Source: a virus
Virus record (IMG/VR): IMGVR_UViG_3300017605_000880
Span: 1-64,000 of that record
Length of the DNA: 64,000 nt
Reading direction: 5' to 3' (one strand)
Position numbers and translations under genes: made by a program. How positions within the stretch are numbered: the stretch's first letter is position 1; every line of letters starts with the position of its first letter. This document shows, piece after piece, positions 25,693-43,349 of this stretch. The notes below the pieces were generated by a model. The model was not told where the DNA came from. It saw only the letters and a list, made by a program, of their open reading frames with translations, and did no database searches.

Positions 25693-26253
25693 GTGGATTG
25701 GGACCCGGCGAAACACCCGCGCGACCCGGACGACGGGCGGTTCACAGACAGTTGGGTCGGGGCGGCGTTGCGTCGGATGCGGTTGCCCAGCTGGATCGAG
25801 AAGGTCACCCCGCAGCAAGCCGAGGCCATCCGCGCTGACCTTGCGGGGGAGGACAAGGCCAGGCGGTACATGCGGCTGGCGTTGACCGACACCGGCCACG
25901 GCGGGCAGTACGACGCCGTGACCCATGTGGCCCGTGATGAGCGTGGGCAGGTGGTCGCGGCGGTGTCGACCCGGGCCTACCAACAGTGGACGGAAGAGTC
26001 TGACAGCTTGGTCCCGCTGACCGGGATTGAGTATCTCGGGTCGGTCGCCCCGGGTGGTGGGACTGCGCTGGTGCGCAACACCGTCTTGCGGGCCTGGGAA
26101 GCCGGCCACGCCGGTGTCTACCTGGAACCGGGGGAAGGTTCGCTGGGGTTTTGGGAGAAGCTGGGGTTCGTACCTGACCCGCTCGAGTTCGGAACCGACG
26201 CCCATTACGGGTTGACTGCCGACCAGTTCGAGCAGTGGCTTGCCGAGCACTGA
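25693..26253 (+). CDS. HPR-tagged GNAT-like acetyltransferase
   Basis: MDWDPAKHPRDPDDGRFTD tag; IEYLGS...GGGTALV...SLGFWEKLGF. Confidence 0.7.
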   Translation: MDWDPAKHPRDPDDGRFTDSWVGAALRRMRLPSWIEKVTPQQAEAIRADLAGEDKARRYMRLALTDTGHGGQYDAVTHVARDERGQVVAAVSTRAYQQWTEESDSLVPLTGIEYLGSVAPGGGTALVRNTVLRAWEAGHAGVYLEPGEGSLGFWEKLGFVPDPLEFGTDAHYGLTADQFEQWLAEH

Positions 26254-26264
26254 GGAGCTGCACC

Positions 26265-27098
26265 TTGGATTGGGACCCGGCACGGCACCCCCGATGGCCC
26301 GCCGACGCGCCCGAACACCGGGGCGGGCAGTTCGCCGACAGCCCCCTCGCGAACGAGTACCGGGCGTTCCAAGCCGCCGGGCAGGTCTGGCTGCGCAGCC
26401 TTTCCCGACGGGCACACCCGAAAGGCCGTTGGAAACCCGGCCGGTGGGCCATGGTCGACCCGCAGGCGTACCACAAAGAACAGCTGGCGCACATCCGCGA
26501 CTCGTTCCTGCAGAACGGTGTGCACCCGCACCAGGCCCGGCAGATCACCCAGGAGATCGCCGACAGCACCACCCCGCCAGCAGTGGTCCTGCAGAACGGA
26601 CCACACCGGTTGGTGTTCCAAGCCGAACACAGCGACTACGGCGCGGTTACGGAGATGTTCGACCGGCTGCACCACGCCGCGCCGGTCTCCACCCCGGCCC
26701 GGCTGCTGTTCGCCCGCGACATCCCCGACCGGCACCACGGGACCACGTTGATGCCGTCCGCGACGGCGATGTTCGACATGAAGATCTTCCAACCGCCCAG
26801 CCAGACTGACGTCGAAACCTCGATGCCGTCAGCCGGGCGGGTCCCGTGGTGGCAGTATGTGATGGCCCACGAGTGGGGCCACGTCGTCGGCGGCGATAAC
26901 CGGCAGTTGGACCCGCCGATGCCGATGATGCAAGGACTGTCCGCCTACGTGTACCGGACGGATTGGGCGGACGAGGCCGAGCGGCGGCGGGAAGCCTACG
27001 CCGAGGCGTTCGCGGAGTGGTTCTTCGCCGACGGGCACCCCTCGATCGAGGCGGTCCGGGAGGCGGCGTTGGCGTTCAGATGGGAGTTCCCGGGATGA
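26265..27098 (+). CDS. HPR-tagged zincin metallopeptidase
   Basis: TTG start after GAGGAG; WDPARHPRWP...GGQFAD tag; HEWGH...LSAY...REAYAEAFAEW. Confidence 0.75.
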   Translation: MDWDPARHPRWPADAPEHRGGQFADSPLANEYRAFQAAGQVWLRSLSRRAHPKGRWKPGRWAMVDPQAYHKEQLAHIRDSFLQNGVHPHQARQITQEIADSTTPPAVVLQNGPHRLVFQAEHSDYGAVTEMFDRLHHAAPVSTPARLLFARDIPDRHHGTTLMPSATAMFDMKIFQPPSQTDVETSMPSAGRVPWWQYVMAHEWGHVVGGDNRQLDPPMPMMQGLSAYVYRTDWADEAERRREAYAEAFAEWFFADGHPSIEAVREAALAFRWEFPG

Positions 27099-27247
27099 GC
27101 GAACCGATCCTGGTGACGGACAGGTTCGCCGACGGCGGCGGATCGACCCCGATCACCGAACTGGACGAACCGACCTTGTACCGGCTGGCGGTGGCCGGGT
27201 CGGATGAGGCGGTCGAGGAGATCGCACGTCGCGCGAACAGCGACTAA
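27095..27247 (+). CDS. 50-aa acidic protein, candidate immunity/inhibitor
   Basis: ATGA overlap with the zincin gene. Confidence 0.55.
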   Translation: MSEPILVTDRFADGGGSTPITELDEPTLYRLAVAGSDEAVEEIARRANSD

Positions 27248-27297
27248 CCCCGGGCTTCCTGGTATCCTGGTCGTAACCGACAGAGAGGGGGCCGGCG

Positions 27298-29307
27298 TTG
27301 ACCAGAGCGCTCACCCCGGCCCACGCCGCCCAGCTACAGGTCGGAACCATGACCACCGCAGGCTACGGCACCCCCGCCCTGGTCAACCCCGGTGGTCCGG
27401 TCGAGATCACCGTCACCCCCGACAGCGACGGCGACGGGCAGCACCTCGATACTGGCGCCACCGGGCTGTTGATGCGCAGCCTCGCCGAACTGGACGCCGC
27501 CCGCCCCGAGTACGCCCTAGCCGACGAGATGTACGACGGGACCGTCGAAGAACTACACGTCTCCGATGCGATCGCCCGGCTGTTGGCCCAATCCGGCGTG
27601 AACAACATCGAAAACCTGAACTACGCGAAAGTCCCAGTCGACACCATCGCCGAGAAGCTGCAGATCCGCGCGATCACAGTCTCTGCCGGCGACCTGGCCG
27701 AGGACGACAGCCACGACCCCGACCGGGAGATCGGCGAAGCCGACCGCGACATCGAAGACGACCCCGAGGTCGACGAGCAGAAAGAAATCAGCAGCCACGC
27801 GCAGGAGCTGCTGGACGACATCCGGAAACGCAACCAGCTCGACGCGGAAGAACCCGAGCTGATGAAAACCTGCTCCAAATACGGCGAAGGATACCTGTTC
27901 GTCTGGCCGGTCGTGGCCGACCCGGAAGGCTACGAAGAAGCCTCACCGCTCGAACCGGACCAACCCGCCCGGATCGTCGGGGTCGACATGTTCGTCAACA
28001 GCCCGTACACCACCCGGGCGTACTACGACGCGGAGAACCCGCTGCGGATGACCCACGTCCTGAAATCGTGGGAGTGGTACGACGAGGCCAACGACACCGA
28101 CCGGCTCCGCGCCACCCTGTACTTCCCCGACCGGATCGAACGTTGGGTGGTCAAGCTGCAGGGCGACCCGGCCCGCCGCGAAGACTGGGAACACTACGTC
28201 GAGGGCGACGAGCAGTGGCCGTTGGACAACCCGACCGGTGAGATCCCGTTCTTCCACCTGCGCAACGACCGCCCCTACGGCAAACCGGAACACCGGGCAG
28301 CGTACGGGCCGCAGCGGTTGATCAACAAACTGGTCAGCACCCACGCGGCGACGATCGACTTCCAGGGCTGGCCCCAACGCTATTTCCTGATCGATCCTAA
28401 AGCCGACGACCCGATGATGAACCTGCTCGACCCGGACAACCCGGAGGACGATGGGGACGATCCGGAGGGCAGTGGGCGCAGCCCGTTCCGGGCCGACCCG
28501 GCAGCAGTGTGGAAGATGTTCGCCAGCGCGGTCGGGCAGTTCCAGGCCGCCGACCCGCAGGTGTTCATGGCACCGCTGGACCGGTACATCAAATCGATCT
28601 CCGAACTGTGCGGGATCCCGCTGGACCGGTTCGTCGGCTATTCCACCCCGCCGTCGGGGGAGTCGCGGAAGGCCGCGAACGAACCGCTGTACGAGAAGGC
28701 CGGATCCCGGCAGGACTCGTATGGTCCGGTGATGGAGGACGCGTACGAGTTCGCGCTGCAGCTGCTGGGTGTGACCGACGTGACGGTCGACGTGAAGTGG
28801 AAGCCGCTGCAGGTTGCGGTCGGGCTCGAGGACTGGAACATCATCCAGGCGAAGATCGGCAACGGTGTCCCGGTCCGGCAGGCGTTGATCGAAGCCGGCT
28901 ACCCGGAGGACGAGGTCGACATCTGGCTGGTGGATGAGACCGGCGCGGACCTGGTCCGCCGGGTGGCGTTGTTGAACTCGATCGGGACCGCGATCCAGGC
29001 GATGTCGGCCGGTGTCGCGGTCGGGATGGTCTCCCCGGAGCAGGCCGGCGACATCATCGCCCGGATCATCGGGGCGGTCGGGGAGAACCTGCCGCGCCTG
29101 GCGAAACCGGTCGCGTTGCACCCGCAGATGCAGCAGATGGCGGACCAGATGCAGAAGGACGCCCGGGGTCAGCAGATGGCCGAACATATCGCGTCGGCTC
29201 CGGCGCAGCCGCAGTTCGACCCGGAGGGGAAGCCTATCCCGCCGCCGCCGGACCGGCCGCTGCCGCCTATGCCACCTCCACCTCCGCCGGTCAAGGTCGG
29301 CAGGTGA
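27298..29307 (+). CDS. portal protein (SPP1 gp6-like)
   Basis: NYAKVPVD, KYGEGY, IPFFHLRN..PYG, GWPQRY, PSGES motifs; position after terminase. Confidence 0.85.
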   Translation: MTRALTPAHAAQLQVGTMTTAGYGTPALVNPGGPVEITVTPDSDGDGQHLDTGATGLLMRSLAELDAARPEYALADEMYDGTVEELHVSDAIARLLAQSGVNNIENLNYAKVPVDTIAEKLQIRAITVSAGDLAEDDSHDPDREIGEADRDIEDDPEVDEQKEISSHAQELLDDIRKRNQLDAEEPELMKTCSKYGEGYLFVWPVVADPEGYEEASPLEPDQPARIVGVDMFVNSPYTTRAYYDAENPLRMTHVLKSWEWYDEANDTDRLRATLYFPDRIERWVVKLQGDPARREDWEHYVEGDEQWPLDNPTGEIPFFHLRNDRPYGKPEHRAAYGPQRLINKLVSTHAATIDFQGWPQRYFLIDPKADDPMMNLLDPDNPEDDGDDPEGSGRSPFRADPAAVWKMFASAVGQFQAADPQVFMAPLDRYIKSISELCGIPLDRFVGYSTPPSGESRKAANEPLYEKAGSRQDSYGPVMEDAYEFALQLLGVTDVTVDVKWKPLQVAVGLEDWNIIQAKIGNGVPVRQALIEAGYPEDEVDIWLVDETGADLVRRVALLNSIGTAIQAMSAGVAVGMVSPEQAGDIIARIIGAVGENLPRLAKPVALHPQMQQMADQMQKDARGQQMAEHIASAPAQPQFDPEGKPIPPPPDRPLPPMPPPPPPVKVGR

Positions 29308-29310
29308 CCT

Positions 29311-30156
29311 GTGACGTGGGGACCGGACGACGAGCGGAAACACCCGCGCGACACTGAAGGCCGTTGGACTGACCGGCTCGATGCCCGGCTGCGCCGGCTG
29401 CCGGGCTTCCCGGCCGACGGGTTGAAGATGCAAGCGTCGGAGATGGCGTACCGTAAACGCTGGCTGGACGAGCACGGCCGGTACAGCGGGCTGGAGATCT
29501 GGCACCCGAACCAGGGCACCTGGATGGACGCAGCCGACGCCTTCCCGAAGGGCCGCTCCTACGGGCCGGCCGACGAGGACGACCCGATGAAGGGTATCAA
29601 ACTGGACGACCCGTACGGGCTCGGGATGGACGCGCACTGGACCCCCTCCGCTCCGATCCACGTCCGCAGGAAACTCGAGCCGTCCCGCCGGGTCGACCAG
29701 ACGCGGGAGAAGCCCAACCCGAGGATGGAGTACCTGCACGAGGAGACCGGCGTATGGGTGCCGGGGTCCAGGCTCGACGTTGACCCTGACACGGGGATGT
29801 GGGATGCGTTCGGCAGTCCGTTCGGTTCGGGGAAGGTCGCCGAACGCCCGCACTACCCGCCGACGAACTTCGACAAGCAGACCGTCGCTTATGGGTTCAC
29901 GCAGGAGGACCACGCGTTCAACGGGATGATCCGAACTATCCGCCTGCAGGATGTGGTCGACCAGCCGTCGTACCTGCAGGGCGGGTACCAGATGCTCGGG
30001 GAGGACGGCAACTGGCACACCTTGGAGGAGGTGTACCAGGTCTACCCGGAGCTTGAAGATTCGGATCTGTTCGAGTTGATCGCGGGGGATCTGCATTTCC
30101 CGGAGATCGAGGCGTCGTCGGAGTTGACGGTCCGCCGCACCCCAATGGACTACTGA
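29311..30156 (+). CDS. HPR-tagged protein with repeated beta-rich domain
   Basis: WGPDDERKHPRDTEGRWTD tag; C-term GGYQMLGEDGNWHTLEEVY... Confidence 0.7.
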   Translation: MTWGPDDERKHPRDTEGRWTDRLDARLRRLPGFPADGLKMQASEMAYRKRWLDEHGRYSGLEIWHPNQGTWMDAADAFPKGRSYGPADEDDPMKGIKLDDPYGLGMDAHWTPSAPIHVRRKLEPSRRVDQTREKPNPRMEYLHEETGVWVPGSRLDVDPDTGMWDAFGSPFGSGKVAERPHYPPTNFDKQTVAYGFTQEDHAFNGMIRTIRLQDVVDQPSYLQGGYQMLGEDGNWHTLEEVYQVYPELEDSDLFELIAGDLHFPEIEASSELTVRRTPMDY

Positions 30157-30170
30157 CAGGAGGAACAACA

Positions 30171-30344
30171 ATGGCAACCTACGGAGCGCCCCGGCAGGTG
30201 CCGGGCCGTAACAGCACCGGGCGCAGCGGGCAGACGGCCAGCGCGAAGCGTAAGGGCATGAAGGCGCTGCCGCCGCGACGGACCGGCGGGTCGAAGATGA
30301 CCCGCGACGGGTCGAACCCGATGGCCCACGGCGGGAACTGCTAA
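30171..30344 (+). CDS. 57-aa basic protein (not in ORF track)
   Basis: AGGAGG SD; MATYGAPRQ...NPMAHGGNC. Confidence 0.65.
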   Translation: MATYGAPRQVPGRNSTGRSGQTASAKRKGMKALPPRRTGGSKMTRDGSNPMAHGGNC

Positions 30345-30354
30345 GGAGACGGCG

Positions 30355-31209
30355 ATGCGCCGCTGGAATGAGAAGGACCACCCCCGCAACCCCGAGGACG
30401 GTAAGTTCCGGGACAAGATCGGCGGCGGCGGGTGGGCGCGGCGCATCTCCGACGCGATCGGACGGCGCCGGGGCGAGCGCGACCAACGCCGCGAGGACGC
30501 CCAATTCGAACGCGACCGGCGCGAGCACATGCGCACCCACCCGGGCGCGACTGCCCGGCAGGCTGCGATCCATGCGTCGATGCAGCAGTCGTTCCGCCGG
30601 GAGGACCAGGCCAGGGCGGCGGGCGACACTGCGCGGGCGGACAGGCTGCGGGCCCAGGGGTTCGATTTCATGCAGTCGTACCACCGGCCGGACCCGGGTG
30701 GGCCGTCGCGGCTGTCCCGGATGGAGGACGGCACCGGTTCGCGTGACCCCAGGCAGGTCGGTGGGCGTCCGATCGAGATCAACGGCCAGACGGTCGGGTA
30801 CGAATCGACCGGGCCTGGGATCCGGGGCGTCAACCAGGACGAGGAGGGGCTGCCCCGGGGCCAGTTGGATCGGGAACTGGCCGCGCTCGTGTCTGACCTG
30901 GACCTGCCGGCGCAGGATGCGCAGGCGTTGAACGAGTCGAAACACCAGATCATCACAACCTACGTCGATGACCTGTTCGAGGTCGCGGAGGACATCCAGA
31001 ACGGGGTCTTCCAGCACGATTTCGAGGAGGACCCCGACTTGGAGGATCTGGTGAATGCGATGGCGGATGTGGCGATGGACCGGCCGGACAACTGGGGCGC
31101 GATGCAGACGGCGGCGGAACGCCTACGGAAGTACATCATCCGCAGCGGCTACGCGAATGTGGCGAAGCTGCCGGCACGCCCGCCGGAGTCGACCTGGAGG
31201 AGAGACTAG
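30355..31209 (+). CDS. HPR-tagged hypothetical protein
   Basis: MRRWNEKDHPRNPEDGKFRDK tag; AAGGAG SD. Confidence 0.7.
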   Translation: MRRWNEKDHPRNPEDGKFRDKIGGGGWARRISDAIGRRRGERDQRREDAQFERDRREHMRTHPGATARQAAIHASMQQSFRREDQARAAGDTARADRLRAQGFDFMQSYHRPDPGGPSRLSRMEDGTGSRDPRQVGGRPIEINGQTVGYESTGPGIRGVNQDEEGLPRGQLDRELAALVSDLDLPAQDAQALNESKHQIITTYVDDLFEVAEDIQNGVFQHDFEEDPDLEDLVNAMADVAMDRPDNWGAMQTAAERLRKYIIRSGYANVAKLPARPPESTWRRD

Positions 31210-31211
31210 GC

Positions 31212-31241: not shown

Positions 31242-31247
31242 GGAGGT

Positions 31248-31445
31248 ATGGTGCGATATAAGACCAAGCGTACTGGCGGCACCAGCAGCAGCAGGATGGC
31301 CGCCGGGCTCGACCGTCTCGACCCCGTTACCCGATACGCTCTCGGGTACCGCCCCCGGAAGCTGACCTCAACCGGCGGCCGGATGCGCAGCTGGGTCCCA
31401 GGGGACCACCCCCGGGGCCGGGGCGGCAGATTCCGCAAGAAATAG
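31248..31445 (+). CDS. basic protein with C-terminal HPR tag
   Basis: Ends SWVPGDHPRGRGGRFRKK. Confidence 0.65.
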   Translation: MVRYKTKRTGGTSSSRMAAGLDRLDPVTRYALGYRPRKLTSTGGRMRSWVPGDHPRGRGGRFRKK

Positions 31446-31455
31446 GAGGAGAGCC

Positions 31456-31652: not shown

Positions 31653-32540
31653 GTGGCCGATTGGGACCCGGGCAAACACCCCCGCGACCTGCGTGATGGG
31701 CAGTTCACCGAGTCGTGGGCCACGGCCATCTCCGACCAGATCGCCGGGGCGGTCGGCAGGGCCACATCCAGCCCGAACCTGCCCCGGCTGCAGCCCGGCG
31801 GCGGGCTGCCCGCTGACACCCCCGCCGACGGGCGGGTCGACACGATCGCCGACCTGGCCGACGCCACCGCCCACCTGGACAGCGGCGGCCACGAACGGTT
31901 CGAGGGTATCGAATTCTACGTGGGAGACGTTGGCTGGGTCAACGCTGACGAGGCGCGGTTGCTGCCCACCACACGAGTCGGACCCAACGGCCAGCTCTCT
32001 GACATCGGTCCCACTATCGTCCTGGACAACTCGGAGATGACCATCCCCGGCGGGCTGGGCGGAGCAGTCGACGTCAGCCTCGAGGGCAAAGCTCGGTGGC
32101 GCCACGCCGACATCCGGCCAGTCAACATCGACCAACCACCGAACCCCGACTGGGAATACCTGGTCGACTTTTACGACGAGTCGGAGTGGATCGACGCCCC
32201 GCAGATCGATGTGGCCGACGGGGAATGGGTGTACGACGGGGAGATATTGACCGCCGTCCTGGGGGGTCGTCCGATGATCGACCCGCCCGAGATGGAAGGT
32301 CTGCACACCCACCCTCAGAAGACCACCGTCGGCGCCCGGCTACTGGACAACCTGCCCGCCTGGACCGGCGGCGGATACCAGATCTACAACCCCGACACCG
32401 GGACCTGGCACACCATCGAAGAGATCTACCAGGACAACCCGGACGAAGAAGAAATCGAACTGATCGCCGACGGGTACCACCTGCCGCACCTGGACACCTC
32501 GGACGAGATCATCGTCCGCCCGATACCTGTAGGGGACTAA
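31653..32540 (+). CDS. HPR-tagged acidic protein with repeated beta-rich domain
   Basis: WDPGKHPRDLRDGQFTE tag; C-term GGYQIYNPDTGTWHTIEEIY... Confidence 0.7.
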   Translation: MADWDPGKHPRDLRDGQFTESWATAISDQIAGAVGRATSSPNLPRLQPGGGLPADTPADGRVDTIADLADATAHLDSGGHERFEGIEFYVGDVGWVNADEARLLPTTRVGPNGQLSDIGPTIVLDNSEMTIPGGLGGAVDVSLEGKARWRHADIRPVNIDQPPNPDWEYLVDFYDESEWIDAPQIDVADGEWVYDGEILTAVLGGRPMIDPPEMEGLHTHPQKTTVGARLLDNLPAWTGGGYQIYNPDTGTWHTIEEIYQDNPDEEEIELIADGYHLPHLDTSDEIIVRPIPVGD

Positions 32541-32542: not shown

Positions 32543-33010
32543 ATGGCCCGCGACTGGCACGAGAAGGACCACCCCCGCAACCCGGAAGACGGCCAGTTCG
32601 TCGACAAGGCCAGCGCCGGACGGTGGGCCAGCAGGATCTCCGACGCGATCGGACGGATGCGAGGCGAGCCCGGCCGTAGCCGCGAACAGCGTCGGATGGC
32701 CGACCCCAACGCGTTCATGCCCGGTCGTGGCGGGACCATCCGACACCCCGACGAGACCCCCGGGTCTGATCCGGACCCGGGCGACATCCGGTTCGCGCTG
32801 CAAAGCCAGGTCCCGTACATCCGCCAAACCGACCTGGACGCGCTGTCGGACGAGATGATCATGGAGGCGATCGACCAAGCCAAGGAGGACGCCGCGACCA
32901 ACCCGCCCGAGGGGATCTCGTTCGACGAGTTCGTCGTGGACCAGCTGACCCAACTGCTGCGCCACGCCCACCCCAGCGAGCTGTGGCCACACCTGTCCGA
33001 GGAGGGCTGA
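32543..33010 (+). CDS. HPR-tagged hypothetical protein
   Basis: MARDWHEKDHPRNPEDGQFVDK tag. Confidence 0.7.
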   Translation: MARDWHEKDHPRNPEDGQFVDKASAGRWASRISDAIGRMRGEPGRSREQRRMADPNAFMPGRGGTIRHPDETPGSDPDPGDIRFALQSQVPYIRQTDLDALSDEMIMEAIDQAKEDAATNPPEGISFDEFVVDQLTQLLRHAHPSELWPHLSEEG

Positions 33011-33243: not shown

Positions 33244-36200
33244 ATGGCGCGACGCCGATACGGGATGCACCCCGGGGATGACGACCAACCCCGCTGGCCT
33301 GAAGGCACCCCGGTCCGCCCGGACGGGCACGGGCCGGGCGGTGGGCGGTTCCGTGGTACCGGTGATGTCGGCGGGGCTGATGTTGGCGACCTCGTGTCCG
33401 GGCTACAGGGCGCCTCGAGCCGGCCGTGGTACGAGACCGCAGCCGGGCAGATCGCACAGCAACGCGGCGGCGGACACCCCCGGGTGGGGTACAACCTGGC
33501 TGTGATCAACGCCGCCCAGGCGCAGTACAACGAGAACCGGGGCGACGGGTACAACGACGACCAGCTGCCGCAGCTGATCGGGCAGTACAACGTCGCGGAG
33601 GCGCAGGGCAACCCGGCTGGGCAGGATGTCGCGGTCGATCAACTCCGGTCGTGGATCGATTCGCACTACCCGGAGCAGTGGGCTGGCGCTCTGCCGGCGC
33701 GGGTGGAGGCCCGGGAGGCGCCCCGGGCGGCGGACCAGGACCAACGCAACCAACGGATCCTGATCCAGGCGTTGGCGTTCCAGTCGAATATCGAGGCGAA
33801 CACCGGCGACCCGGACGACGATTTGGCGATCCGGATCGAAGCACTCGAGCGGCATCTCGGGCGGACTGGGCACCGGGTGGAGGCGGATCGGGAGGCTGCT
33901 GCGCTGCGGCAGTACATGGACAGCGAGATGGACCGGGAGGCGGCGCAGAACCCGGTGTTGCGCCGCCAGGCTGGGCAGGGCGATCTGGGTGAGATCCAAC
34001 GGCTGCTCGAGCCGGCCGGGCAGTTTGCTGGGCCGCCGTCGGACCACGACCGGAACCTGCGGCTGGTCAACGCGATGGAAACCCCCGACGGGGGTGAGGT
34101 CACCGCCGTTGAACTGCTCGAACTGGTCGGCAACGGGCACCGGCTGGAGGTGTTGGGCCGGCACGGGTGGGATCGGGTGGAGACGGTCGACGTCTCCGGC
34201 GAGGGTGACCATTTCATCTACCTGGAGAACGACCCGGAGCCGATCTCGATGTCGCCGGATAGCCGGCTGGCGATCCGGTTCCCCCGGCCGAGCAACGTCG
34301 ACGATGAGTGGCTGCAACAGCACGCCAACCGGCGGGGCCGGGCTGGCGGGGGTCCGCACCCGCTCGGTTGGGACACCGGAGATGAACCAGCCGGTGAGCC
34401 GGAGTTGGACCTCGGTGGGAACCCGGCCACCGACCGCGACGCATGGAACCGACTGGTCGTATATGTTGCCCGTCGTTCCATGGCCAGCAACCCCCGGAGC
34501 CAATTCGACGACGACATCACCAGACACATCATCCGTGACATTGGGCACCCCGATGTCACCGACGTGCAGGGGGTGGCCGACAGCAACGCCGAAACCCTGG
34601 CAGCGCGGTTGCAGCGGCTATATGGGGCCTCGATCATTGACCCACCAACCCGCCGCGCCGAGCCGCAGTTCACTATCCCCGAGACTGGGGTCATCTCCGC
34701 CGCCGAGGACGTGAACCGCGTCCGCCGGGTGACGGGCCAGGCGGAGGACGCCCACCTGACCGACATGCTGCGGGTGGTGCGGGGTGAACTCCCGGGCGAC
34801 CCGCATGGCATGGTGGCGGCGATGCGGCAGCGGCTGCAGCAGATCCACGGCGTGGCCGTTCCTGGCGGCGACGAGTTGGATGTTTTGAGCGACCGCGACC
34901 TGCGCGACCTCGGCATCGAATACGACATCGCAGTCCCCGCACCGCCTCTGGCCCCCGACTACCGCGCCGACCTGATCGCCCGCATCCGCTACCGGCAGCA
35001 AGTCGACGCCGCCAACCGCGCAGTCTCACGAGCTGTCGCCCACAGCAACGTCAACTGGGCCGACACCCACATCAGCCACCAACGGCCCGGGTTCTATCGC
35101 CAAGCGGTTGACGACTACCAGATGCCGTTGCAGATCCGCGACGCGCAGGGCCAGTGGCGTACCGTCACCTCGATCGGCCACCCGACCAACGGGCAGTACG
35201 AGATCATCCACGACGGACCGACCGGCCGCACGTTCGTCCCCGAGAACCACATGATCACCGCCCGGTTCGGGTCGGACCGCAGCGGGCCGGACAGTGAGAA
35301 CCGGCAGCGGTTCAACCAGCAGGTCGCGGTGGTTGCCGAGTCGATGCTCGAGCAGGTGGCTCCGGAGGACCGGGCGGACGACGAAGGCTACACCCGGCTG
35401 CGCGCCGCGCTCGACAGCTACAACGACACCACCTCCAACCCGGATGACCAGGAGTCGATCGACTCGGCGGTGGACGATCTGGTGAACGAACTGGCCGACT
35501 GGGATATCTACTTCGACGTCCCGCCGTACCAGGACTACGACAGCGGCGGCAGCAGCTACCTGCCGCCGAGCCGGTACAGCGGCGGAGTCTACACCGGGGA
35601 CGACCAAGAAGACGACTACGAACTGCCCGCAATCCCAGAACTGTACGGTAACGAACGGCTCGCGGACGTGATGGGCCAATGGCCGACCGACCACAACGAG
35701 GATCTGCCGTCCGGGTACGAGGACCGGGCGTCGGAGATCTGGGACTGGCACGACCGGGTCACCGGGTACCGCGCCGAGGTCATCGGCGTCAGCGCCGACG
35801 GCGACGGGCTGTCTGTCGAAGGCCGGGTGTACGACGGGAACAACGAGATCGGGAAGTTCACCCGGACCATCAGTCCCAGCAGACCGCACCGGATCTACCA
35901 CGCCTACTTCAAGATGTACGACAACCAGGGCGGAGGGTTCGCCACCCGATGGCTGGACCAGGTTAAACAGCAATACCGCGACCAGGGGTTCACCGAGATC
36001 GGGGTCTCGGCCAACCTGGACGTCGGCGGGTACGCCTGGGCGAAGATGGGGTTCGATTTTGCTTCTCGCGACAGCGCCCGGCTCACACTCATAGGGATGA
36101 TGAGCGAGATCACCGGCGCCCACCGGGCAGGCCGGATCGACGACCGGACGCTGCAGGAGGCGCAGGAGCTGCAACGGCGGTTCGACGCGGGGGAACACAT

Positions 36201-36357
36201 CACCCCGTTGGAGATCGCGATGGTCGGGTGGCGGTCCCGGGCCGAGTTCGTCGACCTCGAGGATGCACCGGAGGATCCGAACGGCGACCCGATCGAGATG
36301 TGGTGGGGCAAACGGTTCCTGCTGGGCAGGAGTTGGTCAGGAGTGATGCAGCTGTGA
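33244..36357 (+). CDS. large PRWP-tagged multidomain protein with C-terminal GNAT-like domain
   Basis: QPRWPEGTPVRPDGHGPGGGRF tag; C-term HAYFKM..NQGGGFA...VSANLDVGGYAWAKMGFDF. Confidence 0.75.
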   Translation: MARRRYGMHPGDDDQPRWPEGTPVRPDGHGPGGGRFRGTGDVGGADVGDLVSGLQGASSRPWYETAAGQIAQQRGGGHPRVGYNLAVINAAQAQYNENRGDGYNDDQLPQLIGQYNVAEAQGNPAGQDVAVDQLRSWIDSHYPEQWAGALPARVEAREAPRAADQDQRNQRILIQALAFQSNIEANTGDPDDDLAIRIEALERHLGRTGHRVEADREAAALRQYMDSEMDREAAQNPVLRRQAGQGDLGEIQRLLEPAGQFAGPPSDHDRNLRLVNAMETPDGGEVTAVELLELVGNGHRLEVLGRHGWDRVETVDVSGEGDHFIYLENDPEPISMSPDSRLAIRFPRPSNVDDEWLQQHANRRGRAGGGPHPLGWDTGDEPAGEPELDLGGNPATDRDAWNRLVVYVARRSMASNPRSQFDDDITRHIIRDIGHPDVTDVQGVADSNAETLAARLQRLYGASIIDPPTRRAEPQFTIPETGVISAAEDVNRVRRVTGQAEDAHLTDMLRVVRGELPGDPHGMVAAMRQRLQQIHGVAVPGGDELDVLSDRDLRDLGIEYDIAVPAPPLAPDYRADLIARIRYRQQVDAANRAVSRAVAHSNVNWADTHISHQRPGFYRQAVDDYQMPLQIRDAQGQWRTVTSIGHPTNGQYEIIHDGPTGRTFVPENHMITARFGSDRSGPDSENRQRFNQQVAVVAESMLEQVAPEDRADDEGYTRLRAALDSYNDTTSNPDDQESIDSAVDDLVNELADWDIYFDVPPYQDYDSGGSSYLPPSRYSGGVYTGDDQEDDYELPAIPELYGNERLADVMGQWPTDHNEDLPSGYEDRASEIWDWHDRVTGYRAEVIGVSADGDGLSVEGRVYDGNNEIGKFTRTISPSRPHRIYHAYFKMYDNQGGGFATRWLDQVKQQYRDQGFTEIGVSANLDVGGYAWAKMGFDFASRDSARLTLIGMMSEITGAHRAGRIDDRTLQEAQELQRRFDAGEHITPLEIAMVGWRSRAEFVDLEDAPEDPNGDPIEMWWGKRFLLGRSWSGVMQL

Positions 36358-36864: not shown

Positions 36865-37881
36865 GTGCCGGCGCCCCGCGACCAGCCGCGTTGGCCCCGG
36901 GGATCGCCCGACGACCCGGAAGGTAGAGGCCAGGGCGGGCGGTGGCGTGAACGTAACGCCGCCACCATGTGGTCCGACCAGCTGTACACCCGGATCGGCG
37001 GGATCCCACCATGGGCCGATCGGGGCTACATCGCCCGGTTGGCATTGCTGCGTCCGAAACGGGAAGGCCGCTTGTCGGGCGGGGCGGTGGCGCAGACCCA
37101 ACAGCTGGAGTACGACGGCGGCGGGGTGGCCGTCCGCAAGACCTTCTCCGACGACGACGACGGGATACGGGCAGCTTCGGCCGAATATCTGTCGTCGTTG
37201 GTGTCGGACGTGGTCGGGGCGATGGCCCCGGCGGTGGTGAAAGACCCGACCGATCCGGAACACGCGGTGATCATGGGCCGGGTCAACGGCGACCTCGGGA
37301 CGTTGCACACCGGCAGCAAAGATGCCACCGAGTGGGGCGAGGCCCGGTATTGGTACGCCGAGTCCGACGCCGGACGCCGGATCGGGCTGTTGGATGTCCT
37401 GATCGCGAACCGCGACCGGCATTCGATGAACTGGATCGTGTCGAACGAACTGGACGCCCCCCATGCGTGGCGGCCGGACCAGGGTACGATCCGCCGGCCG
37501 ATCCCGATCGACCATTCGGAGGCGTTTCAGGACACGTTGATCGCCGGGGCGGGGTTGAAGATCGTCAGCCCGGAAGGGCAGTACACCGCCCCGATGGAGC
37601 TTCTGGCGTACCGTGGGTTCACTGGGGCGTGGCTGCAACGTGCGGGGGAGTTGGCCGACCAGTCGGGGGTGGCGATCGACGCCTGGTCGTTGGGTGGGAC
37701 GTTTGCCTACGCCGAGAAGAACCCGCTGCACCCGGACGATATCCCGGTCTTGCGGGCCCGGTTGGAGGCGCTGCGGCCCAGGTTCGCCGACGAGGATATG
37801 CTCGAGCAGTACACGTTGATGATGCGCCGGTTCGAACACCTCGCCCGGCGGGCCGCCGGGACCGAGCGGATGTTCCCGTGA
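36865..37881 (+). CDS. PRWP-tagged HipA/PI3-PI4-kinase-like kinase 1
   Basis: QPRWPRG...GGRW tag; GGAVA loop, VRK, SAEYL, LLDVLIANRDRHSMNW, IPIDHS. Confidence 0.8.
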   Translation: MPAPRDQPRWPRGSPDDPEGRGQGGRWRERNAATMWSDQLYTRIGGIPPWADRGYIARLALLRPKREGRLSGGAVAQTQQLEYDGGGVAVRKTFSDDDDGIRAASAEYLSSLVSDVVGAMAPAVVKDPTDPEHAVIMGRVNGDLGTLHTGSKDATEWGEARYWYAESDAGRRIGLLDVLIANRDRHSMNWIVSNELDAPHAWRPDQGTIRRPIPIDHSEAFQDTLIAGAGLKIVSPEGQYTAPMELLAYRGFTGAWLQRAGELADQSGVAIDAWSLGGTFAYAEKNPLHPDDIPVLRARLEALRPRFADEDMLEQYTLMMRRFEHLARRAAGTERMFP

Positions 37882-38720
37882 GCCGCGCCTGGGACGAGGC
37901 GGAACATCCCCGCGACGAGGATGGGCGGTTCACCGAAGCCTGGGCCGCCTCGCTCGCCGCGACCCTCCCGCACCGGTTCATGACCCACGCCCAGCTGGCC
38001 GACTACGCCGACCGGACCGACTACACCCGGGCGTACTTCCACGGTGGCGGGTCGTCGATCACCGCCGTCCGGACCTACAGCGACGGCCGGGAACTGCTCG
38101 AGAAGTACCACATCGACACCGACGACCAGGCCGATACTGAGGTTGCGGTCAGCTATATCGGCGGGGTGGTCCGGGCCCCGGTCCCCCCGGTGGTGCTACT
38201 GCCCGAGACCGACGAAGACGGCAACCTCGGGACCCTATCCGAATACATCCACGGCAAAACCGCCGCCCAGGTCCTGCCCGAGTACACGAGCATCGGGATC
38301 CCCGAGTACGAACGGCGAACCGGCGAACTGGCTGCGCAGTACCAGGACGACCGGCTCGGGTTGTTGGACCTGCTGATCGGCAACACCGACCGGCACGCCG
38401 GCAACTGGATCATCGCCCCCACCGACCCGCACCACCGGGTCCAGACCGGGCCCAGCCGGGTGGTCGGGATCGACCACGCGAACGCTGAGTTCCAAGGCCA
38501 CACCACCAGCCCGTTCGCCGACTACCTGTACGACACGGCGGCGTTCCAGCTTAGGACCGGAACCCACAGCTGGCCAACGGCGGAGTTGGATCGAATCCAA
38601 CGCGGGATCGACGACCTGCACCATGTCGGGATTGTCCCCGCCTGGGAACACCGCAGCATGTCCGCGACACTGCGCGACCTGCGCAAGCTCGCCCCGGACG
38701 CCCCCGGGAGGGTCCAGTGA
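37878..38720 (+). CDS. HPR-tagged HipA/PI3-PI4-kinase-like kinase 2
   Basis: GTG at 37878; WDEAEHPRDEDGRFTE tag; GGGSS, LEK, LLDLLIGNTDRHAGNW, GIDHA. Confidence 0.8.
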   Translation: MSRAWDEAEHPRDEDGRFTEAWAASLAATLPHRFMTHAQLADYADRTDYTRAYFHGGGSSITAVRTYSDGRELLEKYHIDTDDQADTEVAVSYIGGVVRAPVPPVVLLPETDEDGNLGTLSEYIHGKTAAQVLPEYTSIGIPEYERRTGELAAQYQDDRLGLLDLLIGNTDRHAGNWIIAPTDPHHRVQTGPSRVVGIDHANAEFQGHTTSPFADYLYDTAAFQLRTGTHSWPTAELDRIQRGIDDLHHVGIVPAWEHRSMSATLRDLRKLAPDAPGRVQ

Positions 38721-39592
38721 CCGACCAGCCGCGCTGGCCCGAAGGCACGCCCATCGCCCCCGACGGGAAAGGACCCGGCGGCGGGAGGTTCCGCGACAGC
38801 GTCCCCGAAGGGTGGGCGTTGCAGACCGCGCTGGTGCTCGGGCAGAAACAACCCTGGAAGCGGATCTCGCGCGGCGAGCTGAGCCTGGCCGTACGGCGCG
38901 GCACCGACGCTGCTGCCGCCGATAAGCTGCACGGCGGGGAGATGGCCCAGACTCAGATCTTCACCTACCCCGACGGGCAGGCGGTCGTCAGGAAAACCTA
39001 CGGCCGGATGGACCACGATTCGGTCGATTCGGAATACCTGGTCGGGTTGGTGTCGGAGGCGATCGGCGCACCCACCCCGGCTGTGGTCCGCGACCCCGGC
39101 GGTGACCCGGCCGTGGTGTGGATGCAGTACGTGCCGGGTTCGTTGGCCGCCTCGCAGCTGCCCCGCCGGTTGACCCCCGACCCGTACGCTTCTGACGACG
39201 CGGCGCTGCTCGGGCTGCTCGACGTGCTGGCGTTGAACTGGGACCGCAACGCCGGCAACTGGAAGTACGCCCCCGGGAACCGGATCGTCGGGATCGACCA
39301 CGGTGAGGCGTTCAAGCTGTCGGTCCCAGACTTTTCGGACGGATCGCCCGGCATCCCCAGGCAGATGCGCGACTCCGGGTTCACCAAACTGTACGCCGAC
39401 CGGGGTGTGATGGGTTGGTCCTGGAAAGACAACGACCTGCACCCCGACGACCTGGAGGCGATCCGACCCCGGCTGCAGGCGCTGCGGGCACAGTTCGTCC
39501 AAGCCCACCTGGGGCACTACCACCAGGAGATGATGCGCCGACTGGGTGAGTTGCAACGCCGCGCCCGGGGGACCCGCCGGAGGATCCAATGA
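38717..39592 (+). CDS. PRWP-tagged HipA/PI3-PI4-kinase-like kinase 3
   Basis: QPRWPEGTP..GPGGGRF tag; GGEMA, VRK, SEYL, LLDVLALNWDRNAGNW, GIDHG. Confidence 0.8.
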   Translation: MTDQPRWPEGTPIAPDGKGPGGGRFRDSVPEGWALQTALVLGQKQPWKRISRGELSLAVRRGTDAAAADKLHGGEMAQTQIFTYPDGQAVVRKTYGRMDHDSVDSEYLVGLVSEAIGAPTPAVVRDPGGDPAVVWMQYVPGSLAASQLPRRLTPDPYASDDAALLGLLDVLALNWDRNAGNWKYAPGNRIVGIDHGEAFKLSVPDFSDGSPGIPRQMRDSGFTKLYADRGVMGWSWKDNDLHPDDLEAIRPRLQALRAQFVQAHLGHYHQEMMRRLGELQRRARGTRRRIQ

Positions 39593-40653
39593 CCCTGCCG
39601 ATCGGACCGACCGACGAACAACTCGACGTCGAACTGCGCGCCGCTGCGATCTTAACCAACGAACTGCGCCAGCAGCTGGAGGCCGCGACCCGCCAGATCG
39701 CCGCGTTGTACATCGGGCTCGCGGGCAGTTTGAGCCAACCACTGCCGCCGCCGGTCCGTCGCCGGTTCGCCGACGCCGCCGGACGGATCATCGCCCGGGT
39801 GGCGGTCGACATCCGGGTCCCGTTGTGGGAGATGGTCCTGCAGGCGTTAGACCTGGGGCAGCAGTCGGCGACCCCTTTCGTACAGCAGGTCCCGGCACGG
39901 CTGCGCAGCTACAGCCAATACACCTACGACCAGCTGATGGCCGGGTTGGAGCAGTTGGAACGCCCACCGGCGACGGTGCACCAGTGGGTGGTTGCGTTGG
40001 CAGCGGCTGCCCAGGCAAGGATCGACGCGCAGTTGTTGTCCGCACAGACAGCCGGGCAGGTCGGTGCCCCTCCGGAGGACTTCGCGGAGGTGCTAGCGCG
40101 GATTATCGCCCCCGCCGAGCAGGCGTTGACTGGGCTCGAACGCGACACCCGGTGGGCGACCAACGCCGGGTTCAACATGGGGGTCCGGGAGGTTGCCGAC
40201 CTGGCGGGGGTGTCGCGGATGTGGATCGCCGAACGCGACGCCTGCCTGCACTGCCTGGCGTTGTCCGGTGAGATCGCCGGGCCGGGCCAGCCGTACAACG
40301 CGAACCTGACGTTCTACATCGGGCCGAACGGGCTGTTCAAACCGCTCCCGGTCTATCCGATCGGCCCGTTGTGGGGTCCGCCCCGGCATCCGAACTGCCG
40401 GTGTTTCCAACGACCTGCGCCGGTCCTGGCGGGATATCCGGTCCAGCCGTGGGAGTCGGGGCCGTACACCCCGGCGGAGGCGTTGAAACGCGAAGCCCGC
40501 CGGTCGGTGCTGCGCGGGGTGAGTGGGTCGGATTCGCTGCCGGCCCGGTTGCGCGCCACGGATGCTTTACTGGCCGTGGGTGCTGGGTTGCCGGTGTCGG
40601 TGGAGCGGCGGGCCCGGCGGGCGGTACGTCGTGGCGGATATGGGGGGAGGTGA
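39589..40653 (+). CDS. MuF-like minor head protein
   Basis: WIAERDACLHC...PPRHPNCRC. Confidence 0.8.
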   Translation: MTLPIGPTDEQLDVELRAAAILTNELRQQLEAATRQIAALYIGLAGSLSQPLPPPVRRRFADAAGRIIARVAVDIRVPLWEMVLQALDLGQQSATPFVQQVPARLRSYSQYTYDQLMAGLEQLERPPATVHQWVVALAAAAQARIDAQLLSAQTAGQVGAPPEDFAEVLARIIAPAEQALTGLERDTRWATNAGFNMGVREVADLAGVSRMWIAERDACLHCLALSGEIAGPGQPYNANLTFYIGPNGLFKPLPVYPIGPLWGPPRHPNCRCFQRPAPVLAGYPVQPWESGPYTPAEALKREARRSVLRGVSGSDSLPARLRATDALLAVGAGLPVSVERRARRAVRRGGYGGR

Positions 40654-40658
40654 TTGGG

Positions 40659-40751
40659 ATGGCGAAGAAGGGCCGGTTGGGCAACTTCGGCGGGAAGAAG
40701 GCCCCGCCGTTCACGAAGAAGAGCGGCGGCAAGGGCGGTAAGAAGAAGTGA
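40659..40751 (+). CDS. 30-aa Lys/Gly-rich peptide
   Basis: GGAGG SD; MAKKGRLGNFGGKKAPPFTKKSGGKGGKKK; GTGA overlap with next gene. Confidence 0.55.
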   Translation: MAKKGRLGNFGGKKAPPFTKKSGGKGGKKK

Positions 40752-41509
40752 CGCAGCAGCGCTGGCCCCGGGGCACTCCGGTCGCCCCGGGTGGCCACGG
40801 CCCGGGTGGCGGGCGCTACCGGGGTGTGTCCAGTTCGGCGTACGGTGATGATGACCATGATGTGTGGGTCAGTACCGTGTCGGACCGGATGGACCGGATG
40901 GAGGTGTTGAAGCGGACCCCGCCGTGGATCTCTGGGCGGGCCGAGTGGAAGCGACACCACCGCGACCAGTGGGTGCAGAAGGCAGCCGAGACCCTGGGTG
41001 AGCTGGGCTACCAGGCGGCGGACGCGCCGAACGGCGGGTTGTTGCCTCGCCCGCAGGGTGCGGCGGGATCCTACCACTACCGGTTCTCCCCTGAGACCCT
41101 CGGCGAGATCTACGACCAACACGCCTACCGGTACTACCCGCACGACTACATGATCGACGCCATCGGCATCCTCGAGGACGGGTCGCCTGAGGGGCTGCCT
41201 GAGCTGCGCAACGCCCGAGGCGACTGGCGGGTCTCGATGCGGGCCTACGGCGAAAGCCCGGACACGAAAGAGATCCTCGGGCATGCCCTGGCCGCCCACC
41301 CCGACTACGCCACCTCCGGGGATTTCTCCATCCGGACACCGTCGGGGGAGTGGGCGATGCTGGAGGAGATGTACGTCGACCCGGAAGACCCGGACACGCT
41401 TGAGTTGCACGCTGGGGATCAGGTGTGGCAGATCGACACCAGCGATGATGTTCTGATCCGGCGCAACTGGGAGCCGAAATACCGCAGCCCCATACTCGGG
41501 AAGAGGTAA
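40748..41509 (+). CDS. RWP-tagged protein with repeated beta-rich domain
   Basis: QQRWPRGTPVAPGGHGPGGGRY tag; C-term FSIRTPSGEWAMLEEMY... Confidence 0.7.
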   Translation: MTQQRWPRGTPVAPGGHGPGGGRYRGVSSSAYGDDDHDVWVSTVSDRMDRMEVLKRTPPWISGRAEWKRHHRDQWVQKAAETLGELGYQAADAPNGGLLPRPQGAAGSYHYRFSPETLGEIYDQHAYRYYPHDYMIDAIGILEDGSPEGLPELRNARGDWRVSMRAYGESPDTKEILGHALAAHPDYATSGDFSIRTPSGEWAMLEEMYVDPEDPDTLELHAGDQVWQIDTSDDVLIRRNWEPKYRSPILGKR

Positions 41510-41511
41510 CC

Positions 41512-43152
41512 GTGGCCCGCAGGTTCGTCGAACGCGACCACCCCCGGTGGCCGGCTGAGGCGCCGGACAGTAAGGGCGGGGAGTTCCGCGACAAGACCCC
41601 CGAGATCGGCGGGGGCGGCGGAGATTGGGCGGATCGACTGTCCGGGCGGATCGGGGTGCAGCCGGCGGGCCGGCACGGGTCGGTCGCGACCGGGCTGCGC
41701 CAGACCTGCCCGGTGTGTTACCGGCAGGTGAAGGTGGTCGGGTCGGGGAAGCTGTCGACCCACAATGGGCACGACGGGAAACGCTGCCCCGGGTCGGGGA
41801 TGCCGGCGACGGTCAAACCACCGGCGGATATCCAACGGGCCCCCACCCGCAGGACCCCCGGTGCGAAACCACCGGCGAAGAAGGCCACCCGCCGCGCGGC
41901 TGGCACGCTGCGGCCCCCGCCGCCGCCGAAGGTCACCCCCGGGGCGTGGGATGCGCCGGTCACGGGTGCGGCCGAGATCAGGATGGCCGACTGGCGGTCC
42001 CGTACGATGCACCGTCAGGCCGACGGGTCGATGTACCACCCGAACACCGCCGCCACCCGCGCGGCGGAGATCCAACGGCTACACGACGACATCCAGCAGG
42101 AGGAGAAGAACCTGGAGGGCCGGCGCAACCGGGTGATGATCGATGCCGCCAGAGCCGCCCTGGGGTTGAAGCACTGGGAGTACCTGCCGGTCGGTGTGGC
42201 GCTGGACCTACATAAGACCGACGCCGACACTGACCCGCACGTGCTCGCGGCGGAGGCTAAGCTGCGGGCGTTGCGCAACCAGCTGGACTACGCCGAGTCG
42301 GCGATCAAACAGGACCGGCCGTTCGATCCGACTAACCCGCTTGCCTACTACGGTCCGTTGTTGCATATCGAATCGAACGACTGGTTCGCCTACGGTGTCC
42401 TGGATCAACTCGAGCAGCGGGTCCCGCCCGCGTTCCACAAAGCAGTAGCGGAATGGCTGGCGTACCAGAGCCGAAACAACAACAGCTCCGGGATTTGGGT
42501 CGGCAGCACCCACAGCATCCGCGACCTGGACAACCTGAAACGGCAGATCACCAAACCGCCGCGCGGGTGGGGCAAGAAAGCCACCATGGCCACCTGGGAC
42601 GACGTGGACGGGGTGGTGTCCGGCAGCGCCGTCTACGCGGTCGTGCACACCGAGAACAGTGAATCGCACCTGCGCAGCCGGCGCGGGTACCGCAGGATGG
42701 CCGGGCAACCGGACGAGCTTGCCGTCGGCGACGCTGGGCTGCACGAGTTCGGCCACGTCCTAGATGCTGCGATGGGGTTCTTCAACACCAACCGGGCCTA
42801 CCGGTGGGACGACGCATCGGCCCAGCGGAAGTGGCGTCTGATCCACGGGAAGGTCAAACGCGACTCGCGGACCCTGTCGCCGTACTACCGGCAGAAAGGC
42901 GACGCCGGCCCGGAGGAGTTCTGGGCGGATGCGTTCTTCACCTGGGCGTCAGCCGACCCGGAACTCGACCCGATCGACAAGGACGTCGGGTATCCACGGC
43001 GGCGGACGATCACGAAGCAGGACCGGCTGTTGGCCGAGACCTACGGGACCAGCTTGGCGTTGGCGCAGGAGATCTCGGATTACTTCAACGGGCTACACCG
43101 GGATCTGGTCAGCGGGCGGCGGCTACCGAGGATCGAACAGAGGAGGCCGTGA
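41512..43152 (+). CDS. HPR-tagged Zn-ribbon + zincin (lethal-factor-like) metallopeptidase
   Basis: FVERDHPRWPAEAPDSKGGEFRDK tag; CPVC..H..C; LHEFGHVLD...LSPYY...EEFWADAF. Confidence 0.75.
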   Translation: MARRFVERDHPRWPAEAPDSKGGEFRDKTPEIGGGGGDWADRLSGRIGVQPAGRHGSVATGLRQTCPVCYRQVKVVGSGKLSTHNGHDGKRCPGSGMPATVKPPADIQRAPTRRTPGAKPPAKKATRRAAGTLRPPPPPKVTPGAWDAPVTGAAEIRMADWRSRTMHRQADGSMYHPNTAATRAAEIQRLHDDIQQEEKNLEGRRNRVMIDAARAALGLKHWEYLPVGVALDLHKTDADTDPHVLAAEAKLRALRNQLDYAESAIKQDRPFDPTNPLAYYGPLLHIESNDWFAYGVLDQLEQRVPPAFHKAVAEWLAYQSRNNNSSGIWVGSTHSIRDLDNLKRQITKPPRGWGKKATMATWDDVDGVVSGSAVYAVVHTENSESHLRSRRGYRRMAGQPDELAVGDAGLHEFGHVLDAAMGFFNTNRAYRWDDASAQRKWRLIHGKVKRDSRTLSPYYRQKGDAGPEEFWADAFFTWASADPELDPIDKDVGYPRRRTITKQDRLLAETYGTSLALAQEISDYFNGLHRDLVSGRRLPRIEQRRP

Positions 43153-43349
43153 TGTCGGTCGGTGAACCGTGGCAGGACAAGAATGGCCAGTGGATGGTCC
43201 CGACCCGGGTTGAAGGCGGCGACGAGGACGACCAGCGGGTGGTGGGGATGGGTTGGGCTCCGTTGACCCCGGACCATCCGTTGTACGAGCAGTGGCTGCA
43301 GTACATCCGGGCTGGTTGGGCACGCGAGGTCGACGCCCGGATCAGCTAG
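43152..43349 (+). CDS. 65-aa protein, candidate immunity/inhibitor
   Basis: AGGAGG SD; TGATG overlap with the zincin gene. Confidence 0.6.
   Translation: MSVGEPWQDKNGQWMVPTRVEGGDEDDQRVVGMGWAPLTPDHPLYEQWLQYIRAGWAREVDARIS

Follow-up and report, generated by a model that had tools for sequence, protein, structure and literature searches.

The internal proteins of phage T4 and its Alt protein are unrelated cargo, carried in the head and injected, that share a short N-terminal capsid-targeting peptide; this peptide acts together with a scaffold core, and the gp21 protease later cuts it off. Encapsulin cargo-loading peptides are similarly short and conserved, occur on unrelated enzymes and bind the interior of an HK97-fold shell, and they have remained conserved despite divergence of the shell. 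In polymorphic toxins, junction motifs (VENN in CdiA, PxxxxDPxGL in Rhs) border the variable effector modules. MuF polymorphic toxins, in which MuF carries variable toxin domains, have been described by Jamet et al. (2017, PMC5576092), and the phage-type polyvalent proteins, for which packaging and injection are predicted, by Iyer, Burroughs, Anand, de Souza and Aravind (2017, PMC5512222). Here we describe a block of genes in an uncultured phage, IMG/VR record IMGVR_UViG_3300017605_000880, of which the first 64 kb were analysed (the window). Thirteen open reading frames (ORFs) in this window begin with variants of one short leader motif and continue into different bodies, and all but one of them, ORF 20598, lie between the terminase and scaffold genes, as an earlier note on this DNA had observed. 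The block appears to be a disaggregated polyvalent protein, in which each unit is a gene of its own and has retained its leader.

The leader resembles the T4 peptide in being short, N-terminal in the window and present on unrelated cargo, but it has no sequence likeness to it, and the motif is also found internally and in repeats in other proteins. Nor was a prohead protease, such as the one that removes the T4 peptide, found here with PHROGs or with the three Pfam families searched. Encapsulin peptides are usually C-terminal and of other sequence than the leader. VENN and PxxxxDPxGL mark one C-terminal toxin per secreted protein, whereas the leader stands before every unit and on free-standing genes of the head module. 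Polyvalent proteins (PMC5512222) share with the window both a repertoire of kinase, zeta-like, GNAT-like and metallopeptidase-like domains and the portal–terminase context, and ART-PolyVal, LPD3, MuF and portal domains occur in proteins that also bear the leader. A polyvalent protein is one polypeptide, however, whereas the window has ∼13 genes, with a MuF and a portal protein that carry no cargo. Fusions of the form MuF–motif–effector, similar to the MuF polymorphic toxins, occur among the motif relatives, in contrast to the window MuF, which has no toxin. As cargo logic this is already familiar, from polyvalent proteins, from fusions to MuF or portal and from the T4 targeting sequence. What seems to be undescribed in the literature searched is the leader as the element that opens each unit, and its use in trans on ∼13 genes with two classes of label.

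The leader takes three forms. Type A, W-x4-7-HPR-[DN]-x2-3-G-x-[FW], opens seven ORFs (20598, 25693, 29311, 30355, 31653, 32543 and 37878, each named by the window position at which it starts). Type B, (Q)(P/Q)RWPxGxP..GGR[FWY], opens four (33244, 36865, 38717 and 40748), and a hybrid form, HPRWP..GGxF, opens two (26265 and 41512). Types A and B align to a common theme, (H/Q)PR...GG(R/Q)F; type B lacks the leading W and H, retains P-R...G-G-R-[FWY] alone and carries the WPxGxP insert, and the hybrids bridge the two forms. The motif copies listed in the earlier note are all present at their positions and in the coding frame, with G+C at third codon positions (GC3) of 0.82–0.89 for the tagged ORFs. 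The thirteen N-terminal leaders begin 2–17 residues past a plausible start codon, and most of these start codons have a GGAG-like site upstream. The helix that had been described as W(A/V) and as usually following the tag is better written W-[AVS], and is present in roughly 10 of the 13. An HPRD-type leader defined from natural tags, W-x4(-7)-H-P-R-[DNG]-x2-3-G-[KRQ]-[FW] in a linker or at a terminus, is matched by seven N-terminal tags and by a C-terminal copy in ORF 31248; the motif is indeed there, as had been noted, but the gene is doubtful and has no orthologue in four close relatives.

The full type A pattern is not expected by chance: W.{3,6}HPR.{2,6}G.[FWY] occurs seven times in the genome, compared with a mean of 0.11 and a maximum of 1 in 100 block shuffles of the 72,977 bp. 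Type B and hybrid patterns occur four times and twice respectively, compared with none of either in the 100 shuffles. Taken alone, the bare core HPR.{2,6}G.[FWY] does not reach significance, with nine matches against a mean of 2.0 and a maximum of 8 in 30 shuffles, and one of the nine, at 19901, falls outside all tagged genes. The DNA of the tag copies differs at synonymous sites, showing that conservation acts on the protein rather than on the DNA; these differences also rule out that the tags arose by a recent duplication of DNA.

Behind the leaders, the bodies fall into about nine families by sequence comparison (Table 1). The earlier note had counted about 14 unrelated effectors and a payload of about 15 kb; thirteen N-terminally tagged ORFs stand, but several of their bodies are paralogous, and the 14 ORFs, including 31248, total 13,824 nt and 4,594 aa. 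One domain is common to 29311, 31653 and 40748, 30355 and 32543 are alike over their first ∼40 aa, and 36865, 37878 and 38717 are paralogous kinase-like proteins. That there are three kinases is borne out by a Pfam match at the cut-off for the first of these and by a match below it for the second; the third has no Pfam match and is assigned by paralogy. The zeta toxin in 20598 has a clear Pfam match, the two zincins are so named only for their HExxH motifs, and 26265 has no Pfam or NCBIfam family. The two GNAT-like cargos are suggested by an Atlas lead from 25693 to acetyltransferase clusters (0.89, under the tool's 0.9 mark) and by a BLAST match of the C-terminus of 33244 to P0046, a protein that JGI names GNAT; this C-terminus also matches units of the MuF proteins P0003 and P0005. 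No usable Atlas match was obtained for 29311. ORF 41512 is conserved in relatives, and its AlphaFold2 (AF2) model, computed with four orthologues, has a mean predicted local distance difference test (pLDDT) score of 48 and is confident only at residues ∼61–100 and 181–266, too poor for a fold search.

Table 1. Tagged genes of the window and the head genes among which they lie
Position	Strand	Feature	Evidence
20598..21518	+	Type A leader (residues 6–19) and zeta-toxin/AAA_33-like kinase	Pfam Zeta_toxin 5.9e-15
24067..25680	+	Terminase large subunit (TerL)	phrog_38, 4.4e-51
25693..26253	+	Type A leader and 186-aa body, possibly GNAT-like	Atlas lead 0.89
26265..27098	+	Hybrid leader (HPRWP..GGQF) and body with HEWGH, putatively zincin-like	C-terminus matches P0215, 5e-6
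27298..29307	+	Portal protein, SPP1 gp6-like, no leader motif	PF05133 3.3e-9; phrog_104 5.4e-47
29311..30156	+	Type A leader (W-x7-HPRD..GRW) and body common to 31653 and 40748	Sequence comparison
30355..31209	+	Type A leader, WARRISDAIG helix and body without assigned family	Motif
31248..31445	+	65-aa basic ORF with motif at C-terminus (WVPGDHPRGRGGRF-RKK-stop), doubtful gene	Motif only
31653..32540	+	Type A leader, WATAISDQI helix and body paralogous to 29311 and 40748	Sequence comparison
32543..33010	+	Type A leader, WASRISDAIG helix and 155-aa body	Motif
33244..36357	+	Type B leader and 1,037-aa multi-domain protein, C-terminal GNAT-like unit	P0046 1.2e-10
36865..37881	+	Type B leader and PI3/PI4-kinase-like domain	PF00454 4.7e-6, at curated cut-off
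37878..38720	+	Type A leader and PI3/PI4-kinase-like domain	PF00454 1.2e-3, below cut-off; paralogue of 38717
38717..39592	+	Type B leader and kinase-like paralogue	BLAST to 36865 1.6e-18
39589..40653	+	MuF-like minor head protein, stand-alone, no leader motif	phrog_2662 8.6e-7
40748..41509	+	Type B leader and body; C-terminal domain common to 29311 and 31653	Sequence comparison
41512..43152	+	Hybrid leader; Cys/His zinc-ribbon-like segment, Pro/Lys linker, C-terminal HEFGH (putatively zincin-like)	
43253..44206	+	Scaffolding protein	PF06810 8.3e-11
45969..47108	+	Major capsid protein	PF05065 6.1e-10; phrog_10

The motif is widespread, and the block is a split-gene form of a known polyvalent-protein design, so that the tag system is not special to this phage. 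A degenerate DNA pattern for type A, in which W, [DE], HPRD, G, [KRQ] and F were fixed, so that logos and counts are biased, is found in at least 133 stretches in IMG/VR, often several per contig, and in 94 stretches of bacterial and archaeal genomes taken one per species. The IMG/VR loci that were fetched contain 166 matches to a regular expression (regex), a few of them spurious, most within long ORFs and up to five in one protein; in the fetched bacterial and archaeal loci, which represent many phyla, the motif is in frame in 58 of 80, where chance gap lengths would give 25%. An alignment of 100 tags shows no variation at W, H, P, R, G and F, residues that the search pattern had itself required. 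A profile built from 100 natural tags (A4), searched among 1.84 billion sequences, identifies 3,762 representative proteins at E ≤ 0.001 and 431 at ≤ 1e-10. The highest number of copies in one protein, 20 stretches, is seen in a protein of 7,334 residues; the list of the best 150 profile matches favours multi-copy proteins.

No family for the motif is reported by Pfam or NCBIfam, even on proteins with five copies, and no description of it was found in the open-access literature searched. In particular, there is no mention of the leader in the searched passages of PMC5512222, or of a motif or linker element in PMC5576092 for the terms searched. Among 50,697 phage records, tblastn with a 27-aa tag, a query too short for this purpose, gave no match, and neither did megablast with the 20-kb block. 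A profile match in the PDB to 9rku_Af, a baseplate protein of phage 7-7-1, is weak and partial (E 0.97) and was taken as chance.

The position of the motif within larger proteins is informative. It is present, by regex, in 232 of 235 scanned proteins (P0001–P0235), with a median of three copies and a spacing between copies of 266 aa (median; interquartile range 195–397, minimum 70). In 35 of the 232 the first copy is within 25 aa of the N-terminus, and in none is the last copy within 25 aa of the C-terminus. This spacing, together with the terminal positions, indicates that the motif opens each domain-sized unit; a Gly/Ser-rich linker usually comes after it. Modelled alone by AF2 with the 100-tag alignment, the tag is predicted to form a compact turn (pLDDT ∼83 over residues 1–20) with an R10–F17 bridge, and a helix follows the turn at residues 21–28.

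A Pfam census of motif ORFs from loci fetched with flanks (90 ORFs, of which 82 were run after dropping 8 near-duplicates) links the motif both to head proteins and to effectors. Head-anchoring domains are found in 16 of the 82: Phage_Mu_F in six (four over the cut-off), portal in eight and prohead protease in two, the portal fusions spanning the three families Phage_portal_3, Portal_Mu and Phage_portal. The effector domains comprise ART-PolyVal, ADPrib_exo_Tox, NUDIX, Zeta_toxin, PI3_PI4_kinase, RelA_SpoT, topoisomerase IB (Top1B), Acb1, SAM lyase, 2'-5' RNA ligase, ATLF-like peptidases, LPD3 and PBECR1, and 36 of the 82 ORFs have no Pfam family. A word-indexed search gave 98 hits, 36 of them with MuF, portal, XkdF or DUF2213 domains. 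Stand-alone N-terminal tags are also seen, in viral loci L051, L068, L082, L035 and L030, and prophages of Clostridia, Bacteroides and Gastranaerophilales commonly contain free-standing genes starting M-x1-3-WDESxHPRD, sometimes in tandem. In six of seven viral loci examined, the stand-alone tagged genes adjoin TerL, portal, MuF or capsid genes. The association of tag and head genes that the earlier note had proposed is thus found in both arrangements, as a motif heading cargo units fused to MuF, portal or protease and as stand-alone tagged genes in head modules. Two viral proteins from these loci may be mentioned separately: a motif-bearing protein of 1,920 aa (L059:627-6386) with pyridine-nucleotide disulphide oxidoreductase and Acb1 anti-CBASS domains, and one of 1,576 aa (L041:1693-6420) in which an ATLF-type zinc-peptidase-like unit comes after each of three leader motifs.

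Homologues of four of the window's cargo families form units of larger proteins that bear the motif. In 20598, the zeta-like body is homologous to units within motif-bearing proteins of 818–2,355 aa; the three kinases are homologous to C-terminal units of motif proteins of 1,242 and 1,628 aa, the C-terminal GNAT-like unit of 33244 has counterparts in MuF proteins ∼1,600 aa long, and the C-terminus of 26265 matches a unit in a larger motif-bearing protein. It is these shared families, together with the motif ahead of each unit in the fused proteins, that suggest disaggregation. The motif-bearing proteins elsewhere are phage-type polyvalent proteins in the sense of Iyer et al. (2017). In the window, an effector repertoire of the polyvalent type (Zeta_toxin, PI3_PI4_kinase) lies among portal–terminase head genes; the units are separate ORFs with their own starts, only 33244 looks multi-domain, and the joining of two or more effector domains in one polypeptide, typical of polyvalent proteins, is not seen.

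Close relatives show that the tagged genes behave as cassettes. A complete relative (G001; 80,875 bp, with terminal repeats), whose portal is 98% identical, has the same layout but different cassettes: it lacks 25693 and 26265, has three additional tagged genes, and has four tagged kinase-like paralogues (C1:65189-68770, L138) compared with three in the window. In another relative (L149), a 45-codon remnant upstream of the portal, at 2620-2754, consists of the first 15 residues (the tag) and the last 30 residues of 25693, and is the footprint of a cassette deletion or insertion. The domain shuffling that the earlier note had suggested looking for is therefore evident, with tagged cassettes gained and lost among close relatives and cargo families both fused and free. 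Type B tags, all of them N-terminal, are confined to this clade and a single sister group. None of the other lineages in the 80 loci fetched with flanks has more than three separate tagged ORFs, and this clade is thus the most disaggregated example seen.

The phage itself (72,977 bp, 68% G+C, CheckV completeness 93%) has the late-region gene order of an SPP1-like siphophage, with genes for neck, tail tube, tape measure, minor tail proteins and endolysin 3' of the major capsid gene. Its nearest cultured relatives are the Streptomyces phages KimJongPhill and Lizz, with a portal identity of ∼32–33%. In these the portal-to-capsid interval is ∼5 kb, with two or three short genes inside, one annotated as MuF-like in KimJongPhill; compared with this, the interval in the window is enlarged by ∼14 kb of additional genes. 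Neither Streptomyces phage has an in-frame tag, the sole match to the core regex being on the minus strand beneath an annotated plus-strand gene.

The portal and MuF-like proteins of the window have homologues in which the leader is consistently lacking (0 of 120 for the portal, 0 of 87 for the MuF-like protein). The MuF-like protein is a plain 354-aa protein, with no toxin or further domain, and the fusion of an N-terminal MuF to a C-terminal toxin that characterises MuF polymorphic toxins is not found in it. It has no direct Pfam or NCBIfam match; its orthologue in the complete relative matches PF04233 weakly (E 0.004), PF04233 is present in several other homologues, and the CxxC...HPNCRC residues are conserved. 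A complex prediction with alignments for the portal (residues 40–625), the MuF-like protein and a 44-aa tag gave ipSAE values of 0.00 and 0.00, and speaks neither way.

Some further features of these and other genes were seen. The portal C-terminus (window 29170-29307) is a proline-rich tail, PPPPDRPLPPMPPPPPPVKVGR, which would face the capsid interior. Some homologues of the MuF-like protein (P0252, P0264, P0300; 558–610 aa) contain an intein splicing domain, PF14890. Three small Arg-rich ORFs on the plus strand lie among the tagged genes (30171-30344, 31456-31641 and 32983-33234; 57–83 aa, GC3 0.79–0.90); they are 88–98% conserved in relatives and may be DNA-associated internal head peptides. 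Outside the head module, a plus-strand ORF at 6152-7105 matches phrog_1211 (2.4e-65), labelled '2-aminooxy adenylosuccinate synthetase' (PurZ-like), and a dUTPase/dCTP-deaminase-like ORF lies near it at 8045-9211; the phage DNA may contain 2-aminoadenine in place of adenine.

We propose that the ∼13 separate effector units, which comprise kinases of zeta-like and PI3/PI4-like type, GNAT-like proteins, HExxH proteins and a number of domains of no known family, would be produced late, enter the procapsid and be delivered along with the DNA. Less certainly, the leader, W-[DE]-[EP]-x-x-HPR-D-x-x-G-[KRQ]-F, may serve as a portable address label. It would form a small hairpin-like knob, often followed by an amphipathic W-helix in this clade, that binds a component of the head interior and thereby brings an unanchored unit into the procapsid, in the manner of T4 capsid-targeting sequences or encapsulin cargo peptides. 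The leader could afterwards be either clipped or kept, and the lineage-specific type B may represent a second class of label. We consider the chances that the leader is a portable capsid-loading label to be about evenly balanced. This role is favoured because the tagged units sit in the head module and have homologues welded to procapsid-interior proteins, and because the stand-alone units share only the leader and the W-helix, so that, if they are indeed packaged, the leader would be the only common element that could load them.

Several observations weigh against a loading label. Units that are already anchored to MuF or portal keep the motif before every domain, where a label for loading alone would be redundant; units may often pass from fused to free form and back, and this could account for its retention in the fused proteins. 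Across phages with four different Pfam portal families and hosts from many phyla the motif hardly varies, a constancy that is difficult to reconcile with a fast-evolving partner in the head; a universal partner or an intrinsic role would fit it better. A search of weak sensitivity detects MuF in 28 of the 48 viral records that bear the motif, and in 9 of the 15 that are at least 90% complete. Finally, the presence of tagged proteins in virions is a prediction, as is the docking of the tag on portal, MuF or scaffold that the earlier note had proposed.

The main rival to a loading label is a processing junction, in which a protease cuts at or beside the motif and frees the units, and the leader of a stand-alone gene is a propeptide or a relic. 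The protease could be a co-packaged zincin (41512 or 26265, the two HExxH proteins of the tagged set) or the metallopeptidase suggested by Iyer et al. (2017), who propose that a peptidase cuts polyvalent proteins into units. The location of the motif in interdomain linkers, once per domain-sized unit and usually ahead of a Gly/Ser-rich stretch, accords well with such a role, as does its position between portal and effector in fusions, from which the effector needs release if it is to exit the head. However, thirteen separately translated units keep the motif under protein-level selection, where cutting would free nothing, and distant prophages show the same placement at the N-terminus. Most protease sites also need fewer than seven near-invariant residues in a stretch of 14. 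No prohead protease (S78, XkdF or ClpP) was detected in this phage, with PHROGs on 59 ORFs and with PF04586, PF14550 and PF00574 on the whole record, so that a pure cleavage role for those protease families would be without an enzyme here. On balance we regard a processing junction as unlikely.

Somewhat more doubtful is a handle that acts after assembly, in which the motif would serve in exit through the tail or once inside the host, perhaps by contacting a universally conserved host factor, and loading would occur by other means. Such a handle would be kept on each unit, fused or free, as is observed, and near-invariance across bacterial phyla and portal families is what a universal partner would predict. 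No candidate partner has been identified, however, and the stand-alone units would be left without any other common element to load them. Among the 98 hits of the word-indexed search, none has a Pfam accession that we recognise as a conjugation domain, conjugative proteins not having been searched directly. Since conjugative polyvalent proteins meet the same host (PMC5512222), this counts, if indirectly, against a post-assembly handle. That the leader has no binding or signalling role at all, being a structural cap, a linker or a mere junction for cassette recombination, is improbable: close relatives have exchanged, lost and acquired cassettes precisely behind the tags, and the same cargo families occur fused and free, but the tag DNA is, by its synonymous differences, too divergent to guide homologous recombination, and the constancy of W, H, P, R, D, G and F from phylum to phylum points to selection on the peptide itself.

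In a bolder form of the loading label, tailed phages in general would use the HPRD leader as a universal signal for cargo loading, a ∼14-residue knob sufficient to take any protein into the procapsid interior, irrespective of portal family or host phylum and much as the cargo peptides of encapsulins do. We advance this tentatively, and would sooner expect it to fail than to hold. If it were true, polyvalent proteins would be chains of self-addressed units, and the present clade, with 13 free clients and labels of types A and B, would be a natural experiment on the action of the label in trans.

Polyvalent proteins are so far mostly a predicted class of injected proteins directed against the host and its defences, and the leader bears on how their units enter the head, come apart and act. 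The presence of one motif before every unit in thousands of proteins, and alone on 13 enzymes in this phage, provides an experimental handle in the form of a single peptide. A loading role for the leader would account for the modular architecture of these proteins and offer a general route for loading chosen proteins into phage heads. If it is instead a signal for processing or ejection, the motif would still mark the borders of the units and improve the annotation of giant phage proteins.

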